From positions 6,831-70,830 of the IMG/VR virus record IMGVR_UViG_3300042402_004628: a stretch of DNA of 64,000 nt; one strand, written 5' to 3'. Under the pieces are notes generated by a model, which saw only the letters and a list, made by a program, of their open reading frames with translations, searched no databases and was not told where the DNA came from. The position numbers and the translations under genes are program-made. The DNA is from a virus. Below are positions 5,979 to 62,295 of the stretch, in pieces; position 1 is the stretch's first letter, and the number at the start of each line of letters is the position of its first letter.

Positions 5979-7073
5979 TTAAGACCATTTGTTTAACATT
6001 TGGTAATTGTGAACTTCGTTCCATTTATTTGCGTCATAATTACCCCCTTTCCAATATTGGAATGAACCTATTCTTATATCACCCCCAGCTGTTAAGCCCA
6101 ATCTGAAAATATTATCAAATATCAGTTCAGTTGTTCCAACTTGTTGTACATAATTTTCATTACTATCATCAGCAATAAATAGTTGACCAGCATCGTTTCT
6201 ACCAAAAATAAGGGTTATCCAAGTATTAACTTGTGCACTCATTGATACGGTATCAGCACCCATAGTAAATTGGTATACGTTTGTAGCAATATCATATCTA
6301 AGTCTCGTAATCCCCCCATCAGCATAAATTATTGCTGGTGAATTACTGGCCTGCGGTGTGAATCTGAGCCTCAACGCAAACATAAAAGACTCACCAGATG
6401 AAGTATTAAGGGGTGCTATATATGAAGCCGCATTGGATGAATCTAAATCTATGTATAAATTTGCCGCATTAAATCTTCTATTATAAGTTGAATTATCGCC
6501 CGCGGTTTGTATTGATGTGGAGATATTTCCAGCGACATTTTTTGTAAACCATCTTTCTATTACACCATCAGTTGCTTGAACCAAATCGTAACATTTTGTT
6601 AAATTAGTCTCAAGAATGTCGCAATTAAGATTACCGAAATCAATATTTAACATTAAATTAGGGGTGTCAGCGTATTTGTATTTTGATAAATCAGCCAAAA
6701 AATGATTTAAATTTTCATTTTCAATAACGTATCTTTTGGCAACATCCACGTCACTATAATACGTGCCATCAATTTTTATTGAATGCAAACTATTAATTAT
6801 GTGTACAATTTCCGCATTGGTTTTACCAGTGACGTGATATGTTGGAATCGTGGGCTCACCGCCAACACCTTCTACATTTCCTCTTGATACGATATAATAT
6901 TTTTCGCCACCAAAATTACCCGCAGGATAACCTGGTCTCCAAGTAAGACCCGTTGAATTTCCGTCTTGAAAATTAAACCCTTCATTAATGTGGCCATAGC
7001 AATATTTACCAATTCTATGATATTGATCAATCGTTGGTGCGGTACCGTATTGTATAGTTACTGGAACTGACAT
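5979..7073 (-). CDS. hypothetical protein (possible virion or fibre protein)
   Basis: 364 aa, G/N/T/S-rich beta-type composition; divergent from the 7137 gene. Confidence 0.45.
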   Translation of the reverse strand: MSVPVTIQYGTAPTIDQYHRIGKYCYGHINEGFNFQDGNSTGLTWRPGYPAGNFGGEKYYIVSRGNVEGVGGEPTIPTYHVTGKTNAEIVHIINSLHSIKIDGTYYSDVDVAKRYVIENENLNHFLADLSKYKYADTPNLMLNIDFGNLNCDILETNLTKCYDLVQATDGVIERWFTKNVAGNISTSIQTAGDNSTYNRRFNAANLYIDLDSSNAASYIAPLNTSSGESFMFALRLRFTPQASNSPAIIYADGGITRLRYDIATNVYQFTMGADTVSMSAQVNTWITLIFGRNDAGQLFIADDSNENYVQQVGTTELIFDNIFRLGLTAGGDIRIGSFQYWKGGNYDANKWNEVHNYQMLNKWS

Positions 7074-13957: not shown

Positions 13958-14030
13958 GAGCCCCCCTTTGCCCCCCATAAACGGGGGGTAGGGAGGGGGA
14001 TACGGGAGGGGGGAGGGTGTACCACCCCCT
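13958..14030. other. GC-rich structured element at the convergent A/B junction: C6/G6 hairpin followed by a G-tract run (G-quadruplex candidate)
   Basis: GAGCCCCCCTTTGCCCCCCATAAACGGGGGGTAGGGAGGGGGATACGGGAGGGGGGAGGGTGTACCACCCCC in an otherwise AT-rich window. Confidence 0.6.
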
Positions 14031-14124
14031 ATACTGCTATTTTCTTTTAATGTGCAAGTTTATATAAAACAAAGTTATCCACACTTGTGATGTGGATAAC
14101 ATTATTTGTTTATGTGGTTAAAGG

Positions 14125-14646
14125 TTATCCGAAGATAACCTTTTCCCCACACTTGATATTCTCAATACCCTCAACCTTGATAGTACGGATAACAATATCA
14201 TTATCCAAACCTTGATTGATTGCCTTGCTTGGCTTTTGTTTGAACTGCTTGATAACCTCAACTTGTTCAGCGTTTGCCTCAACCCCGTCAACGAAGTATT
14301 TAAGCGTTTTAGAAGTGTTACAAGCGAACTTTAAGTACTCACACGATAGGTCGCTTTTCTTTGCTACGATAGAGCCGTTAAAGCCGTCATTTACGGGCGT
14401 AAACCAATTTTCTTTGGCTACGAAGTCAGCCTCTTTACCCTCACGAATACGGGCGTTATTCACCATATTTTGATAGTTAGCGTTTAACAACATATTGTAG
14501 TCAACTAACTTGGTGATAACGGCACTACGCAAAGGGTTGCCCGTCTTTAACATTTTTTGTTCAACCACTGCTAATACTTGGGCGAACTTTGCACTGCCTC
14601 CGTCATTGATAAGGCTTGCGATTACTTGTGATTTTTTGTTTTGCAT
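14125..14646 (-). CDS. hypothetical protein, paralog A of a duplicated family
   Basis: ~50% identical over full length to the 24502-25017 protein (shared NDGGSA, KTGNPLR, REGKEADF, YFVDG.EA.AE.VE.IK.FK blocks). Confidence 0.65.
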   Translation of the reverse strand: MQNKKSQVIASLINDGGSAKFAQVLAVVEQKMLKTGNPLRSAVITKLVDYNMLLNANYQNMVNNARIREGKEADFVAKENWFTPVNDGFNGSIVAKKSDLSCEYLKFACNTSKTLKYFVDGVEANAEQVEVIKQFKQKPSKAINQGLDNDIVIRTIKVEGIENIKCGEKVIFG

Positions 14647-14670: not shown

Positions 14671-14702
14671 ACAAATGTAGGTGTAATTTTTTTAACCCGC
14701 AA
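14671..14702 (-). promoter_or_regulatory. cassette promoter (TTTG-N20-TAnnTTTG) for paralog A
   Basis: TTTGCGGGTTAAAAAAATTACACCTACATTTG. Confidence 0.6.
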
Positions 14703-14835
14703 ATTTTAACGCAAATTTTTTTATCTTTTTTTTTGTTTAACTTTTCGGGCAAAACATTAAACACAAAAAGTATCGTGTAGGTTGGAGTATACTCTCCCGA
14801 CTTGTTCAGCCCGCCCGTTGTCTTTAACAACAATA

Positions 14836-14867
14836 CAAAGGTAAATGAAATAAATTTAACTTGCAAA
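14836..14867 (-). promoter_or_regulatory. cassette promoter with no ORF downstream (candidate sRNA unit)
   Basis: Consensus copy; ~135 nt non-coding before promoter 14671-14702. Confidence 0.5.
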
Positions 14868-18088: not shown

Positions 18089-18259
18089 TTAATTCAAAAA
18101 AAGGGGAAATTTCTTTCCCCAATTAAATGCATTTTGCCTTTTTCTGTTTATTGACGGATTACAAAAGACAAACGTCATCCGTTCTCACCCACCTTATAAA
18201 TCCTTCCCGTGCACGAAACAAGAAACTGGGGCGGGATTGTTTCTACTTGTTATTTAATA

Positions 18260-18291
18260 CAAAGATAAACGAAATAAATTTAATGTGCAAA
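18260..18291 (-). promoter_or_regulatory. cassette promoter with no ORF downstream (candidate sRNA unit 18115-18255)
   Basis: Consensus copy; terminator 18100-18122. Confidence 0.5.
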
Positions 18292-23537: not shown

Positions 23538-23569
23538 CAAAGATAAACGAAATAAATTTAATGTGCAAA
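23538..23569 (-). promoter_or_regulatory. cassette promoter (leaderless) for start 23533
   Basis: Consensus copy. Confidence 0.6.
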
Positions 23570-24263: not shown

Positions 24264-24295
24264 CAAAGATAAACAAAATAAATTTAACTTGCAAA
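24264..24295 (-). promoter_or_regulatory. cassette promoter for start 24240
   Basis: Consensus copy. Confidence 0.65.
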
Positions 24296-24335: not shown

Positions 24336-24367
24336 TTTGCACATTAAAAAAAATACATTTACCTTTG
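24336..24367 (+). promoter_or_regulatory. plus-strand cassette promoter inside the minus arm; drives an ORF-less structured transcript (24368-24465)
   Basis: TTTGCACATTAAAAAAAATACATTTACCTTTG on the + strand; hairpin+T-run at 24466-24490. Confidence 0.5.
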
Positions 24368-24501
24368 TATTGTCCAATTAAGGAAGGGCGGGCACTCAAA
24401 AGGTGGCTGGGGTGTTCTAAGGGAACCTGCCCTTTACTCTCGTATTATGTTAAATAAAAAAAAAGGGGATTGCTCCCCTTTTCTTGTTTCGGCTTTCTCG
24501 C

Positions 24502-25017
24502 TTACTTGAAAGCGATTACATTCTTGTTGGCTCTCACTTCCTTAATGCCCTCAATCTTGATTGTGCGGAAGATTACTTCATCTGCAACACCTTGATTTGC
24601 GGCACTTGAAACTCGCTTAAAGTTCTTGATGATTTCCACTTCTTCTGCGGTGGCTTCTTTGCCATCAACAAAGTATTGCAACACTTCTGCACTTTCAACA
24701 ATGCCCGACAAATACATTTTGTCTTGTGCTTTCTTGCTTCTTACGATTGCACCATTCTTGCTATCGTAAACTTTCTCGTGCCAATTACTTTTGGCTTGAA
24801 AATCGGCTTCTTTGCCCTCACGAACACGCTGATTGTTTACTGCATTTTGGTACACAGCATTAAGCAAAAACTTGTAGTTTACAAGTTTGGTAACATTCGC
24901 CTTACGCAAAGGATTACCTGTTTTTACCATGTCTTGTTCAACATTGGCAATGATTGTTGCGAAGGTGGCACTTCCGCCATCGTTAATCGCATTGAAGATG
25001 ATTTGTTCTTTGTTCAT
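24502..25017 (-). CDS. hypothetical protein, paralog B (matches the 14125-14646 gene)
   Basis: Full-length similarity to paralog A; own promoter 25040-25071 and a bidirectional hairpin at 24466-24490. Confidence 0.65.
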   Translation of the reverse strand: MNKEQIIFNAINDGGSATFATIIANVEQDMVKTGNPLRKANVTKLVNYKFLLNAVYQNAVNNQRVREGKEADFQAKSNWHEKVYDSKNGAIVRSKKAQDKMYLSGIVESAEVLQYFVDGKEATAEEVEIIKNFKRVSSAANQGVADEVIFRTIKIEGIKEVRANKNVIAFK

Positions 25018-45684: not shown

Positions 45685-45716
45685 ACTTGCATAATAAAAA
45701 AAGTTGTATTACATTT
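45685..45716 (+). promoter_or_regulatory. cassette promoter with no ORF downstream; leads into an inverted repeat and the GAATTCA repeat array
   Basis: CTTGCATAATAAAAAAAGTTGTATTACATTTG. Confidence 0.5.
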
Positions 45717-45735
45717 GTAGTCCTTAAGAGTTCAG

Positions 45736-45794
45736 GCCTGGGAGGCAACCCTTTCTCTCTGTTTTGTTTTTGATTTCAAAAAGTCCTCCCAGGT
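45736..45794 (+). other. long-range inverted repeat (CCTGGGAGG ... CCTCCCAGG) downstream of the ORF-less promoter
   Basis: 9-bp arms about 40 nt apart. Confidence 0.5.
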
Positions 45795-45803
45795 TCTGTT
45801 CTC

Positions 45804-45942
45804 GAATTCAAGTTTAAGTTTCTACTAGAATTCAACCCCGTATAATTTTTAGAATTCATATTGCTGGATCTTCCAGAATTCATATCCGTAACTTTTTTAG
45901 AATTCATATATAAATAAAAAAGGTGAACCCTTTTAGAATTCA
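45804..45942. repeat. array of six (T)AGAATTCA repeats (iteron-like), the first three on a 24-bp register
   Basis: GAATTCA at about 45804, 45828, 45852, 45886, 45900, 45936. Confidence 0.65.
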
Positions 45943-45957
45943 CCTTTCAGTTTTTTT
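45920..45957 (+). terminator. hairpin + T-run closing the ORF-less transcript from promoter 45685
   Basis: GGTGAACCCTTTTAGAATTCACC ... T7. Confidence 0.5.
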
Positions 45958-45967
45958 ATGTATTCAC

Positions 45968-46370: not shown

Positions 46371-46664
46371 ATGAATGCAATAAATACAGCCTATACATTG
46401 GGTTTGGTCGCCATGTATTTTATCATGGGCGGAGAATTCACATTCTGGGTGTTCATGACCTCGGTCTTGATCGCACTGATTCCACTGACAACTTCGAACC
46501 TGTTATTCGCGACCCCGATCGTGGTTCTGATCTGGTGTTTCTTTTTCACCAGCAGTACAGTTTACGATTCCGACTTCGCGTGGTTATGCATCCTGTATGC
46601 ACCCTTCCATTACACCTCATTCATATCCCATGTCATAGACGCCATCGAGGGCATTTTCGATTAA
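46371..46664 (+). CDS. multi-pass membrane protein
   Basis: Three hydrophobic helices; promoter 46322-46353. Confidence 0.5.
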   Translation: MNAINTAYTLGLVAMYFIMGGEFTFWVFMTSVLIALIPLTTSNLLFATPIVVLIWCFFFTSSTVYDSDFAWLCILYAPFHYTSFISHVIDAIEGIFD

Positions 46665-55091: not shown

Positions 55092-56543
55092 TTAAATTTT
55101 AATCTTTATGTTTTCGATAATTAAATCACCAGTGTGAATACCGTTATGTTTATAAATTTCAACATGGTATCTGTTAGATGAGTTGACCTCAAATTCAAAT
55201 TGCATTGTTGGTCTACCGTCAGCGTTGAGTGTTCTACAACAACCCTTTTCACAAGACTCACCAGGCATTTTATGATCGGCTCCGAAGAAAGACATATAAC
55301 CCGCGAAGCTCTCAACCATATTCGGGTGTGCTGTTGTTAATTTATTTCGATTAACGTAAACCTCATAGACACCTTTAGGTATCTTCGTGAATGAAACGGT
55401 TAATACTAATTTAACTCTATTTGGCGCACCTAGCTGGCCACTTGTTGGCGTAACCTGTGTGACAGCATCTGTGATTTGACCATTAATTGGTATGCTGAAA
55501 TTATTGCTATGTAAAACATTGTTGTATGCTCTAGCCATCATCGGTTGATCAGCTTTTTCATATACCTCAACATCATCATAATCATAATCAAGTTTGTATA
55601 TTATCTTTATCACATCTTCCATTGTATAGGTAACTTTCTTACCATTCTCATCGAAGAAAACATAAGACCAGTCAGCTGATTTTAACATCTCCAATGTAAC
55701 TTTCTCCCCATTCGGAGAATTAGTCCATTGCTGCCATAGTCTATCAATGTTTGAGTGATGTGTCCAGAAAACTGGATCAAACCCAGCTGTCGGAACCCAA
55801 CCCATCAACCCTGTCTCACTAATTTTACCAGTGATTGGGTTGTTGAACAACTTACCAGTTTGTACATTACCAGCGCCGATGTAATCGTGCATCGCACCAT
55901 GTGGGGCATTGTTAATCTGCGAGTTAAACATTTCGTATGAGGTGTAACTCATTAATTTATCTGTCTCCAAAGCTCTTTGGATTTCACCTGCAATAGGATA
56001 ACCATAGTTCAAGCTATCAAATCTACAACGTTCATATAGGGATGATTTCGGATCTCTGAATTTTTCTTGTAAAAATTTGTCGTAGTCAAAATTATTTGTG
56101 TAGCCCCAATAAGGTAATGCGAAATCTTTATATCCAGACAATTTTCTAACTATCTTTTCTAAATGGTGAATGTATAATCTATGCCAAACCAAGAAATGAA
56201 TTTTTTCTTTACCACTTGGTGTATGTGTACAATTATCCCAAGCTTCTTTTAAATCGGCTGGGGTCTTATAGCTTGGGCACAGTGGGTTATATAAGATTGT
56301 GTCGGGAACCCAATGAATTGCACCTTGATAATACCAACTCAATGGGTTATCACAAGGCATATTACGCATAATTTTAAAGGCTTTGTCCATGGCTTCAACG
56401 TCCATTTGTGCCTCTGGTGTGTGAATTTCTTTTCGGAGATATCGTTTTCCAACAACATCTCCAACGCTTTCGGTTCTGTCTTTACATGATATTAGCCATA
56501 ATAGGCCAAACATCAAAATGAATAGTATTAATATTTTTTTCAT
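55092..56543 (-). CDS. tyrosinase / polyphenol oxidase (type-3 copper), predicted lipoprotein
   Basis: CuA 'HFLVWHRLYIHHLE', CuB 'HGAMHDYIG...DPVFWTHHSNIDRLWQQW'; N-terminal MKKILILFILMFGLLWLISC lipobox. Confidence 0.8.
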   Translation of the reverse strand: MKKILILFILMFGLLWLISCKDRTESVGDVVGKRYLRKEIHTPEAQMDVEAMDKAFKIMRNMPCDNPLSWYYQGAIHWVPDTILYNPLCPSYKTPADLKEAWDNCTHTPSGKEKIHFLVWHRLYIHHLEKIVRKLSGYKDFALPYWGYTNNFDYDKFLQEKFRDPKSSLYERCRFDSLNYGYPIAGEIQRALETDKLMSYTSYEMFNSQINNAPHGAMHDYIGAGNVQTGKLFNNPITGKISETGLMGWVPTAGFDPVFWTHHSNIDRLWQQWTNSPNGEKVTLEMLKSADWSYVFFDENGKKVTYTMEDVIKIIYKLDYDYDDVEVYEKADQPMMARAYNNVLHSNNFSIPINGQITDAVTQVTPTSGQLGAPNRVKLVLTVSFTKIPKGVYEVYVNRNKLTTAHPNMVESFAGYMSFFGADHKMPGESCEKGCCRTLNADGRPTMQFEFEVNSSNRYHVEIYKHNGIHTGDLIIENIKIKI

Positions 56544-58704: not shown

Positions 58705-58921
58705 CTTCTTTTTTAATATCCTCTCGAGTTAATTCTTTTTCAGCTTGGTGCATGAAGATAATCTCTTTTGTTTGTTCATCAACTGTGCAAGCGGCAATTG
58801 GTTTATCAACTCGGTAATGATATTCTTCTCCTAGCATACCAACTTCTCCGTTGACAACTTCAAAGGCATCAAACTCCTCTGGTAGGGTGTTGAGCCACGT
58901 TTTTAATTCTCCTAAATTCAT
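58691..58921 (-). CDS. hypothetical protein
   Basis: ORF track. Confidence 0.4.
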   Translation of the reverse strand: MNLGELKTWLNTLPEEFDAFEVVNGEVGMLGEEYHYRVDKPIAACTVDEQTKEIIFMHQAEKELTREDIKKEDGKD

Positions 58922-59943
58922 ATATCGTAAGGTGTTGTACTGAATGTTATCTTCTCGATACTCAAACAGTTTGTGTTTATTATTTTTTCGATAAACATAA
59001 TAAAATCAGAAACAATATCAAATGATTTTATTTGTTTGTTCAGGTATAGGTTGTAAACCCCAATTTCTTGAAGAACATCTGATTTATTGATTATTAAATC
59101 AGTCACACCGTTGATGTTAATTGCTTTGATCATATCGTCCAAGTCCAACCAATCAACTTGCCTCGGTCTACCAGTTGTTGCACCAAACTCATTACCAACT
59201 TCTCTTATCTTCACAAACAATGGGTCTGCACCTTCAAAGTTTTTGGCACCAACATATGTGCGATAAGCTTTTGCAACGCCGTACACTCTGTCAATTTTTT
59301 GTGCTGGTATTCCATTAAGGATGGCCCCACCAATTGTGCAATGTGATGATGTAACATATGGGTAATCACCCCAATCAATATCCAACTCAAAACCCTGAGC
59401 CCCTTCGCAAAGTATACTACAACCGTCTTGCCCATTAAATAATCCGTATGTATCAACAACCATGTCGGCTAACATAGGAACATCAACAGCTCTAAGACCT
59501 TTTCGATAATACTTATCTCGGTAAGCTGGGCCATTCCCAGTTTTAGTCGTACCGATTTTACTATCCAAACTATCTTCGTGTAGATGTTGCTCGGTGATGA
59601 TGTGAACACGTTTATCAATCAATAAGTTCTCACGAACTTTAAATCCAGCTAATTCGAGTTCATCAATTTCTTGAATAAGTTTGTCTGGGTTGACCACACA
59701 ACCAAGTCCAATAATTGATTTGATTCCATACAATACACCAACTGGTATGAAATGTGTTACATATTTTTCACCATTGTGATATATCGTGTGACCAGCATTA
59801 CCACCACCATTGTAGCGCATAACATAATCATACTCATCTGGCTTCTTAGCCAGAGCGTGGGCAACCTTGCCCTTTCCAGTGTCACCCGCTTGCAGGTCAA
59901 CAATTACATCAGCTTTGCGTATCATAGTGCGTGGTTTTCCCAA
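58918..59943 (-). CDS. purA: adenylosuccinate synthetase (short form)
   Basis: 'GDTGKGK', 'RYNGGGNAGHT', 'GTTKTGNGPAYRDK', 'EGAQGFELDIDWGDYPYVTSS', 'GNEFGATTGRPRQVDWLD' align to PurA motifs; the real start may be the internal MIRKADV. Confidence 0.85.
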   Translation of the reverse strand: MGKPRTMIRKADVIVDLQAGDTGKGKVAHALAKKPDEYDYVMRYNGGGNAGHTIYHNGEKYVTHFIPVGVLYGIKSIIGLGCVVNPDKLIQEIDELELAGFKVRENLLIDKRVHIITEQHLHEDSLDSKIGTTKTGNGPAYRDKYYRKGLRAVDVPMLADMVVDTYGLFNGQDGCSILCEGAQGFELDIDWGDYPYVTSSHCTIGGAILNGIPAQKIDRVYGVAKAYRTYVGAKNFEGADPLFVKIREVGNEFGATTGRPRQVDWLDLDDMIKAININGVTDLIINKSDVLQEIGVYNLYLNKQIKSFDIVSDFIMFIEKIINTNCLSIEKITFSTTPYDI

Positions 59944-60432: not shown

Positions 60433-62295
60433 TTATTTTACCTCGGTTACAGTACCCTGTTCAGATTCTTTTTTCTCTTGGATTTGCTTTAACAATTCCA
60501 TTCCAAGTAAGCCATTGATTGGGCTACTATCACCACTACCTGTGATAAGAATCTCAGGGATGATTTTGATACCATTTGTACCAATCATTTCGGTAACTTT
60601 AAGTTTACCAAAGTTTTCAACACCCATAGCTTTAACTTGCTTTTCGTAAGCCTCAGCAGTTGATTTACCAATCGCGGAAATCTTAGATGCTTCAGCATCA
60701 CCAGTCAATTTAATCTGCGTAGCATCAGCTTCAGCGTTCAATTTCTTAGCTTCAGCTTGAGCGGCAGCTTTTAATTTCAAGGCTTGTGCTTCACCCTCAG
60801 ATTTCTTAACAGCGGCCTCAGCTTCACGTTGAGAAATCTCAACCGATTGTTGTGCTGACACCATTTGTCCTTGCATATCGGCAAGTGCTTTAGCCGATTC
60901 AAGCGTCTTACGTTTATCTTGAGCTTTGCGTTGAGTGTCAAATGTTACCTCTTCTTCTTGTGCAATCTTACGGTCAGTAAGAGTTTTCATCAGAGAGTCT
61001 GGTGGTGTGATGTCACCAATAAGCGTATCAACCGCATGCACGTTGTATTCTTCAAGAACCGTGCTGATCTTATCTTTAGCAGCATTCTGTCTTTGTTGAC
61101 GAGTTGATAAGAACGCAATCACATCAGAATCTTGTGCCGAGTTACGGAAATAGTTACCGATGGTTGGTTCAAGAACTTGTGACACAAGGTTCTGCATTGA
61201 GCCGAAACGAGCAATTACTTTAGGCGCTTCGGTTGATGGGATGTGGATAATCTGTGAAACATCCAAATTGAATGGGAAACCGTCTTGTGAACGTACTGTG
61301 ATGGTACTCAAGTTCTTATCAAGATTGTGTGATTCATTACGAGCATTTGCCCAGTTAAGAACCAAGTTTGTTGTTGGTACTATCTCAATCTTCTGTGTAT
61401 AAGGATTGATTGCGTATTTACCTGGATCCAATGGGGTTGCCCACACACCTTTCTGACCTTTTTTAACGATGTTACCGTGTTTAAAATCACTTCCAGTGGT
61501 GTCTTCACCATCTTCACCAACATAAGAGATAACAACACCAACATGACCGATAGGAATGGATGTCATTTCTTTCTTCTCAACTTCGATTGCCCATGGGTTC
61601 AATGAATAAGAACCAGCTTGAATAACTTGGATTTGTAAACCCCTTTGTCCACCATTAGCCAAAAACTTATCAAAGTCTTGGAAATTATTGTGACCGCTAA
61701 CCACAGAACCAGCGATTGAACCAATCTCAAGTGGTGTACCATCAAGTGCTGTAACAACGCCAACCATACCATCTTCAATGTATGTGATGTCAGCGAGGAA
61801 TATCTCGAATAAATGGGTATTAACACGATACACACCGTTGTTTAAATAACCAACTTGTTTACCACGTTGTCCACCTGTTGATAAAAACGCTCTAGCATCT
61901 TGGTAATCATCACAATCAACGTGTCGAGCCAAGATAGCACCCTTTGGTAACTGTGCGCCATCTTTAGCTGATAACAAGCCGATCTTACCTTTAGGTATTG
62001 TTGTTAAAGGGGCTTGTTCGATTTCGAATTGCCATATCCAGTAAGCCCAATATAAACCTGGGGCTAATGTGTCGGCCTGAAAGCCTGGTTCATTGTTTAA
62101 GGCGATAATCTTACCATCGGGTAATTGTTTATTGGGGCCAAAAAGTACAAATTTTTTGGTCACCAAACCAATTTTGTCTTCAGGTATGATAACCATACCA
62201 AAGAACACTCGTAGTACGAACTTGTAGAATACTACCATGAGGATCGGGATTAAAACCCATGCGTAACCCAATACGCTAGTTAATTGTTCTGTCAT
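60433..62295 (-). CDS. flotillin-like SPFH/band-7 protein (YqiK-type) with EA-rich C-terminal coiled coil
   Basis: N-terminal TM, SPFH-like core, 'AEAAVKKSEGEAQALKLKAAAQAEAKKLNAEADA' flotillin-type repeats. Confidence 0.7.
   Translation of the reverse strand: MTEQLTSVLGYAWVLIPILMVVFYKFVLRVFFGMVIIPEDKIGLVTKKFVLFGPNKQLPDGKIIALNNEPGFQADTLAPGLYWAYWIWQFEIEQAPLTTIPKGKIGLLSAKDGAQLPKGAILARHVDCDDYQDARAFLSTGGQRGKQVGYLNNGVYRVNTHLFEIFLADITYIEDGMVGVVTALDGTPLEIGSIAGSVVSGHNNFQDFDKFLANGGQRGLQIQVIQAGSYSLNPWAIEVEKKEMTSIPIGHVGVVISYVGEDGEDTTGSDFKHGNIVKKGQKGVWATPLDPGKYAINPYTQKIEIVPTTNLVLNWANARNESHNLDKNLSTITVRSQDGFPFNLDVSQIIHIPSTEAPKVIARFGSMQNLVSQVLEPTIGNYFRNSAQDSDVIAFLSTRQQRQNAAKDKISTVLEEYNVHAVDTLIGDITPPDSLMKTLTDRKIAQEEEVTFDTQRKAQDKRKTLESAKALADMQGQMVSAQQSVEISQREAEAAVKKSEGEAQALKLKAAAQAEAKKLNAEADATQIKLTGDAEASKISAIGKSTAEAYEKQVKAMGVENFGKLKVTEMIGTNGIKIIPEILITGSGDSSPINGLLGMELLKQIQEKKESEQGTVTEVK

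Follow-up and report, generated by a model that had tools for sequence, protein, structure and literature searches.

U1 and probably U3, two short transcription units in a 64,000-nucleotide stretch of viral DNA (IMG/VR record IMGVR_UViG_3300042402_004628, positions 6,831 to 70,830; here called the window), are likely to be stand-alone genes for small structured non-coding RNAs of ~65-115 nt. These RNAs would belong to a family carried by a clade of uncultured huge phages with contigs of up to ~300 kb and Bacteroidota-type promoters. Each RNA gene would be read from the standard promoter of the phage by the primary sigma factor of the host, and the RNAs would share a layout in which a hairpin flush with the 5' end is followed by a G-rich linker and then by at least one hairpin whose sequence varies. 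The subtype of U1, type A, would continue with an invariant stretch of ~20 nt (GUAUACUCC-R-ACCU-R-CC), probably single-stranded, and a U-rich end. An earlier note on this DNA had pointed to three units (14705-14867, 18100-18291 and 24336-24490, here U1, U2 and U3) with a consensus promoter and no plausible open reading frame (ORF), and all three are located as it described. The roughly 100-135 nt that it allowed before the next terminator or promoter proved too short for U2 (about 160 nt), and U1 has no canonical terminator, ending in a U-rich stretch and running into the next promoter. Its reading of the units as phage small RNAs (sRNAs) is well supported for U1, where a conserved family, covariation and the lack of a conserved ORF come together; for U3 the reading has moderate support, and for U2 it is unsupported either way. 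Judged by the marks of an sRNA gene, U1, U2 and U3 each have a host-type promoter of their own and no conserved ORF, and covariation is found for U1 and type A. The features concerned are as follows.

14836-14867, minus strand: U1 promoter, with TTTG at -33 and TACCTTTG at -7, the Bacteroidota consensus (PMC7366714).
~14831-14762, minus strand: U1 RNA, assigned to type A by a model built without U1 (R1), by alignment A8 and by pair counts.
14817-14831, minus strand: U1 hairpin P1, GUUGU-UAAAG-ACAAC, flush with the inferred start; its third pair covaries in the family (U-A, C-G, A-U).
14810-14816, minus strand: GGGCGGG motif of U1, preceding P3.
14799-14811, minus strand: U1 hairpin P3, GGCU-GAACA-AGUC; each of its six pairs shows two-sided changes in A8.
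14777-14797, minus strand: conserved module of U1, GGAGAGUAUACUCCAACCUAC (family consensus RRRR-GUAUACUCC-R-ACCU-R-CC).
14762-14776, minus strand: U-rich tail of U1, ACGAUACUUUUUGUG, a likely weak 3' end; other members carry UUAUAUUUUUUU at the same place.
14735-14762, unstranded: inverted-repeat element GTTTAATG..AGTTAAAC, lying after U1 and ahead of the following promoter; relatives have it after the RNA in either orientation.
14125-14646, minus strand: gene for a 173-aa protein, just downstream of U1, with its own promoter at 14672-14703.
18260-18291, minus strand: U2 promoter; the one at 23538-23569 has the same 32 nt.
18096-18255, minus strand: U2 transcript body and terminator (18096-18120); the body carries CCCGCCCC (18228-18235), the complement of the family motif GGGCGGG.
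24336-24367, plus strand: U3 promoter, divergent from the one at 24264-24295 on the minus strand.
24372-~24487, plus strand: U3 RNA, with P1 at 24373-24384, a closing helix (24384-24392 with 24426-24434) and a terminator (24461-24482).
24393-24414 and 24414-24426, plus strand: inner hairpins of U3, within the closing helix.
24502-25017, minus strand: gene for a 171-aa paralogue, 55% identical to the 173-aa protein and convergent with U3.

The window contains ~60-70 copies of one 31-nt promoter of Bacteroidota type, and from ~14 to 44 kb it is dense with small genes, each preceded by this shared promoter type. The promoter core, TTTGCAAGTTAAATTTATTT, occurs 39 times at ≤3 mismatches against an expectation of 0.09 for the 64-kb window. 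By scanning with the pattern TTGC-N19-T[AT]NNTTT[GA] we found that true promoters lead to an ATG at +4 (leaderless genes) or at +18 to +27, and that just four copies have no ATG at these spacings, those of U1, U2 and U3 and one at 45687-45717(+). Promoters of the Bacteroidota primary sigma factor carry TTTG near -33 and TAnnTTTG at -7, leaders of ~23 nt are typical of the phylum, and both the motif and the leaders of the phage match these features (PMC7366714). Placing the transcription start 5 nt past the TTTG, from the spacing of the leaderless genes, gives inferred starts at G14831(-) for U1, A18255(-) for U2 and G24372(+) for U3. The intrinsic terminators of U2 (minus strand) and U3 (bidirectional) are real; U1 has the U-rich stretch at 14762-14776 instead, and runs on into the promoter at 14672-14703. 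The promoter at 45687-45717(+), also ORF-less, was absent from the list in the earlier note. Beyond it comes a GC-rich stem of 9 bp, CCUGGGAGG...CCUCCCAGG, with a fold that beats 200 of 200 shuffles (z -3.5), and past this stem there are six copies of TAGAATTCA (45687-45960, plus strand), the next plus-strand gene being at 46371.

No close DNA match to the window was found among cultured phages, and related DNA came from uncultured viral contigs and metagenomes only. We assign the window to a huge phage with a host of Bacteroidota type because of the promoter type, the size of its uncultured relatives (contigs of 250-306 kb, among them the 305-kb NCBI entry CACVDJ010000001.1) and the DUF932 marker, whose nearest cultured relative is from a Flavobacterium phage (36% identity).

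The family was reached through loci related to the 173-aa gene that flanks U1, several of which have an ORF-less promoter unit with a similar transcript beside the gene, and pattern scans showed the same RNA in many more viral contigs, whose lengths reach 270 kb. Type A copies keep one order of parts: P1 (GUY...RAC) at the first transcribed base, a linker (GGGC or GGGA, more rarely GUGA or GUUA), P3, whose sequence varies among lineages, the invariant module RRRR-GUAUACUCC-R-ACCU-R-CC, and a U-rich 3' end, usually UUAUAUUUUUUU. A covariance model, R1, built from four distant copies alone (L164a, L178a, L178b and L179), matched U1 at 14763-14828(-) with E=0.00095 in a search of the window, and matched 22 further copies. 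In the alignment of 21 distinct sequences derived with R1, which is fitted to the model and hence leans to the structure, 92.8% of cells are paired compared to 75.4% in shuffles, eight of the nine pairs change on both sides, and the covariation score (0.316 versus 0.134) was reached by 0 of 500 shuffles. Sliding the partners by 1-3 columns brought this score to ≤0.086. By manual count over ten type A copies, in a hand alignment fitted to the proposed helices, P3 has standard pairs in 44 of 44 cases, with every position variable, and P1 in 37 of 37; the manual count and the slid controls agree with the covariation in the R1 alignment. G-U pairs are frequent among them; since the opposite strand would have A-C mismatches at these places, selection appears to act on the sense-strand RNA. 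We consider it well supported by these comparisons that U1 is a member of a conserved structured RNA family.

The proposal in the earlier note to look for folding or covariation across related phages thus succeeded for type A, U1 included, but not through single-sequence folds, as the folding energies of U1, U2 and U3 are no better than those of shuffles (z -0.7 to -1.3). The case for RNA structure therefore rests on comparison with other phages. A plain MAFFT alignment with RNAalifold left the variable hairpins of type A out of register and predicted three uninformative pairs; it was replaced by the four-copy covariance model and the manual count. We also considered a GGAG/CUCC helix within the conserved module and rejected it, the 3' side being invariant and A-C mismatches being present; the module is, to judge from the alignments, conserved as sequence. 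No conserved AUG-initiated ORF of any length was found in the units, in agreement with the earlier note, and the type A and type B copies are mostly without an AUG. U1 itself has just one AUG frame, of six codons. Short inverted repeats (GTTTAA..TTAAAC, GTTATCAACA..TGTTGATAAC and GTTAATAAC) separate RNA genes from the promoter that follows and occur in either orientation, at loci L012, L037, L038, L088 and L102 and at L013, L164, L166, L178 and L179, and may be operator-like sites.

Phage-encoded small structured RNAs are a known kind, and the family described here would be new to Rfam 15 and to the literature that we searched. No Rfam 15 family matched the window at the gathering threshold, and at E up to 10 none fell on the transcribed strand over U1-U3, the sole overlap being with sraA, on the opposite strand at the shared U3 terminator. 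ARAGORN found no tRNA or tmRNA gene in the window. At the sensitivity of our scans, the RNA and the 173-aa protein are absent from 185,579 species-representative bacterial and archaeal genomes, where matches to the DNA pattern fell in membrane-protein coding sequences only, and neither the RNA nor a homologue of the protein was found in cultured phages. Scanning metagenomes with a loose pattern returned mostly chance matches and five real ones. A full-text literature search turned up no paper about small RNAs in huge phages of Bacteroidota. On the evidence of these searches, the family is not in Rfam 15 and is confined, within the collections covered, to uncultured huge phages.

U3 is related to this family more loosely. 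Type B copies contain GGGCGGGGGUAAGACCACGAAGUAAAUCAGAGGUA, closed by GGGCGG/UUGCCC and followed by a U-run. A model built from type B, R2, finds a further subtype, type D, which is convergent with a 173-aa homologue in L008-L010, and it cross-matches one type A copy (L164b, E=0.007). The type B and D relatives keep P1 and the GGGCGG/UUGCCC closing helix, with 97.6% of positions paired and one-sided G-C/G-U changes only. The stem AAGGGC...GCCCTT that the earlier note saw in U3 is present (24384-24392 with 24426-24434), and U3 is indeed a plus-strand unit within a minus-strand arm that ends in a bidirectional hairpin (24461-24482). Its predicted fold is a GC-clamped three-way junction. U3 shares with the family the sequence TTTG TATT GTC just past the promoter, the 5' hairpin, AGGGCGGGC and the 3' strand AACCUGCCC, and it is convergent with the paralogous 171-aa gene as type D is with the 173-aa homologue. 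Neither covariance model gives a significant match to U3; R2 falls at exactly 24372-24444 with E ~1-4, the same level as ordinary terminators. Global alignments to family members give z 2.3-4.1 for most and 0.45 for L013B. Homologues of U3 were found in near-identical relatives only (L001-L003, ~96% identical). Because the RNA body is 96% identical where the flanking DNA is ~82-89% identical (L001-L003 and L021), we suggest that the body is under constraint. In L001-L003 an altered A-run shifts the frame of the 20-codon ORF of U3. Since the resemblance to the family is weak and the homologues are near-identical, we call U3 a probable divergent paralogue.

U2 is a different case. Its transcript, ~160 nt long, has no counterpart in L007, the closest relative covering the region, where the flanks align on either side of the gap, and no homologue was found, an 18-mer scan of IMG/VR returning one chance match. 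Comparison with the RNA family gave no extended similarity on either strand. The motif GGGCGGG occurs three times in the 64 kb, once per unit (14810-14816, 18229-18235 and 24386-24392), in sense orientation in U1 and U3 and in antisense in U2, and in the best fold of U2 the CCCGCCCC stretch pairs with a GGUGGG of its own. The twin of the U2 promoter at 23538-23569 drives a leaderless 71-aa gene, and the identity of the two over 32 nt indicates a recent promoter duplication. We read U2 as a unit specific to this strain: it may be a young RNA gene, or it may have arisen as a by-product of that duplication.

Exactly two members of the 171-173-aa protein family are encoded in the window, one beside U1 and the other beside U3. 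Given ~120 intergenic slots, such a double adjacency would by a rough estimate arise by chance about once in 1,000. RNA and protein genes are also adjacent in L008-L010, L012, L013, L164, L166, L178 and L179, and in L012, L164 and L178 an RNA lies on each side of the protein gene. In 15 further contigs found via the RNA, it has DUF932 or GP88-family genes as neighbours, and no homologue of the 173-aa protein was detected within the few kb fetched. No RNA lies alongside several of the 173-aa homologues, those of the 305-kb NCBI genome among them. The linkage between RNA and protein thus appears limited to one clade. Two type A copies flank a DUF932 gene in L222 (2884-4135) and a GP88-family gene in L207 (767-2191), and a single copy adjoins a DUF932 gene in L213 (4240-5381); RNA genes therefore seem to travel with early or accessory cassettes. 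Part of the predicted fold of the 171-173-aa protein resembles the nucleic-acid-binding barrels of Sm and WYL proteins. The 173-aa protein has no Pfam, PHROG or PADLOC match and no match in the PDB by sequence or by Foldseek, and in BFVD it matches uncharacterised phage proteins only. A 215-aa protein at the same position in L037 and L088 was considered as a member of the 173-aa family and set aside, the similarity being unconvincing.

Direct placement of U1 upstream of the 173-aa gene, on the same strand and with no canonical terminator in between, raises the question whether U1 is a cis-acting 5' leader or attenuator of that gene, operating on read-through from the U1 promoter. A transcript that reads through would allow GGGCG to pair with UGCCC at 14741-14745, and a related pairing is kept in L007. 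We nevertheless regard a leader role as improbable because, unlike in a riboswitch or attenuator leader, a consensus promoter at normal ATG spacing (14672-14703) separates U1 from the gene, and because the family occurs in other orientations: elsewhere the same RNA ends in UUAUAUUUUUUU and lies downstream of genes, convergent to them or beside unrelated ones, and U3 is convergent with its neighbour gene. More improbable still is a cis-antisense role, directed at minus-strand transcripts nearby, which the earlier note had suggested for the plus-strand unit, U3, and which might perhaps extend to the other units. U3 overlaps no minus-strand ORF or leader, being set between the promoter at 24264-24295(-) and the terminator at 24461-24482, and its body resembles a family that elsewhere is co-oriented with its neighbours. 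A comparison of how U1-U3 pair with all 61 initiation regions in the window showed no preference for neighbours, those of U1 and U3 ranking 45-57 of 61. Against this stand the position of U3 as the only plus-strand unit in a minus-strand arm, the bidirectional terminator that it has in common with the 171-aa gene, and the fact that read-through of that gene would be complementary to U3.

The units might instead work at the level of DNA or replication, as origin-type promoters with G-rich priming transcripts or as clusters of protein-binding sites near DnaA-box-like repeats. U1 lies ~650 nt from a conserved G/C-run tract and the perfect inverted repeat at 14074-14100, and similar inverted repeats follow RNA genes in L013, L164, L166, L178 and L179. 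Since the compensatory changes, with their many G-U pairs, point to selection on the sense-strand RNA, and since there are several copies per genome in varied contexts, we think this explanation very unlikely, if slightly less so than the antisense one. Least probable of all is that U2, and possibly U3, are functionless by-products of promoter or terminator duplication, or that the units encode micro-proteins. The missing U2 body in the closest relative, the lack of a homologue and the exact promoter copy at 23538-23569 would fit a by-product, and U2 does contain a 29-codon ATG ORF (18089-18178). This ORF, however, runs through the terminator hairpin and is without the A/C-rich leader of the phage genes, the micro-ORF of U3 is frameshifted in relatives, conservation and covariation exclude U1 from such an account, and the greater identity of the U3 body than of its flanks suggests constraint.

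Stand-alone genes for structured RNAs thus remain our preferred reading of U1 and probably U3, and known systems offer several points of comparison. Small stable or regulatory RNAs of phages include the species 1 and 2 RNAs of T4, OOP of lambda and sar of P22, which are short, ORF-less, promoter-driven and located in early or regulatory regions. U1-U3 share all these traits, but they have no Rfam similarity and overlap no gene in antisense, and the family is multi-copy, with subtypes, in huge uncultured phages. In type III toxin-antitoxin systems (ToxIN, AbiQ-antiQ) an RNA gene is followed by a gene for a protein of ~170 aa, which is the order seen here, whereas the phage RNA is single-copy, the units contain no tandem repeats and the protein gene has its own promoter. 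Nor does the 173-aa protein match the ToxN/AbiQ family of endoribonucleases in PADLOC, Pfam or PHROG. A ToxIN-like system fails because there is neither a tandem RNA array nor a ToxN-like protein. RNA anti-CRISPRs are solitary repeat-like RNAs in phages, and the RNAs described here resemble them in being small hairpin RNAs with a promoter, encoded in accessory regions of phages. GUUG at the start and CAAC or GAAAC at the end make several P1 hairpins similar to many CRISPR repeats, but in our family the conserved module lies outside P1. The Bacteroidota, a phylum without Hfq or ProQ, have intergenic sRNAs of their own, such as GibS, the FopS family (RF04319) and the BTnc RNAs (PMC7366714). They share with the phage units the promoter type (TTTG at -33, TAnnTTTG at -7) and, in the case of U2 and U3, intrinsic terminators, whereas sub-threshold Rfam matches fall on terminators elsewhere in the window and the family is absent from the bacterial and archaeal genomes scanned.

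We suggest that the RNAs act in trans, with the hairpins as a stabilising scaffold and the invariant module as the surface that a protein or a complementary target would recognise; RNAs that act in trans by binding such a partner are, on present sequence evidence, the most likely reading. The complement of the type A module occurs in the window at one site with three mismatches, which is chance level. Among partners in this phage, the product of the neighbouring 171-173-aa genes would be the likeliest; this specific link is more doubtful, and we put it forward as a tentative possibility. It is unlikely, though worth stating, that the RNAs and the proteins with their Sm/WYL-like barrels form an RNA chaperone or decoy system of the phage, with the module serving for recognition and the CCCGCCCC of U2 as a counter-RNA to GGGCGGG. 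If so, the pair would act on host or defence RNAs in a phylum that has neither Hfq nor ProQ. What is known of the huge phages that infect environmental Bacteroidota concerns, to our knowledge, almost exclusively their proteins. A multi-copy family of structured RNAs that covaries clearly and lies outside Rfam 15 suggests that RNA-based functions are present in their early or accessory regions. The RNA genes recur next to those of an uncharacterised family of proteins whose fold may bind RNA, which makes a concrete candidate pair, and the invariant 20-nt module would provide a handle for target finding once the host is known.

Some other parts of the window deserve mention. The segment 13831-14110 forms the border between the promoter-poor left part and the promoter-dense arm and is a candidate origin or genome terminus. 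It holds repeats of the TTCCCCAGAAATTTTTT type, a tract of G/C homopolymer runs (13960-14030) and an orphan -33 box, and at 14074-14100 a perfect inverted repeat with a DnaA-box-like motif, GTTATCCACA-N7-TGTGGATAAC. The G/C-run tract and the adjoining repeats recur in L004/L005, L041, L163, L166, L181 and L182, and the DnaA-box-like motif in L004/L005, L166 and L182. On the minus strand, 58918-59943 encodes a member of the adenylosuccinate synthetase family (Pfam E=4e-82); at 341 aa it is shorter than usual for this enzyme and comparable in size to the PurZ enzymes of phages with 2-aminoadenine genomes. Two further minus-strand genes are unusual cargo for a phage, encoding a tyrosinase-domain protein of 483 aa (55092-56543) and an SPFH/band-7 protein of 620 aa (60433-62295).
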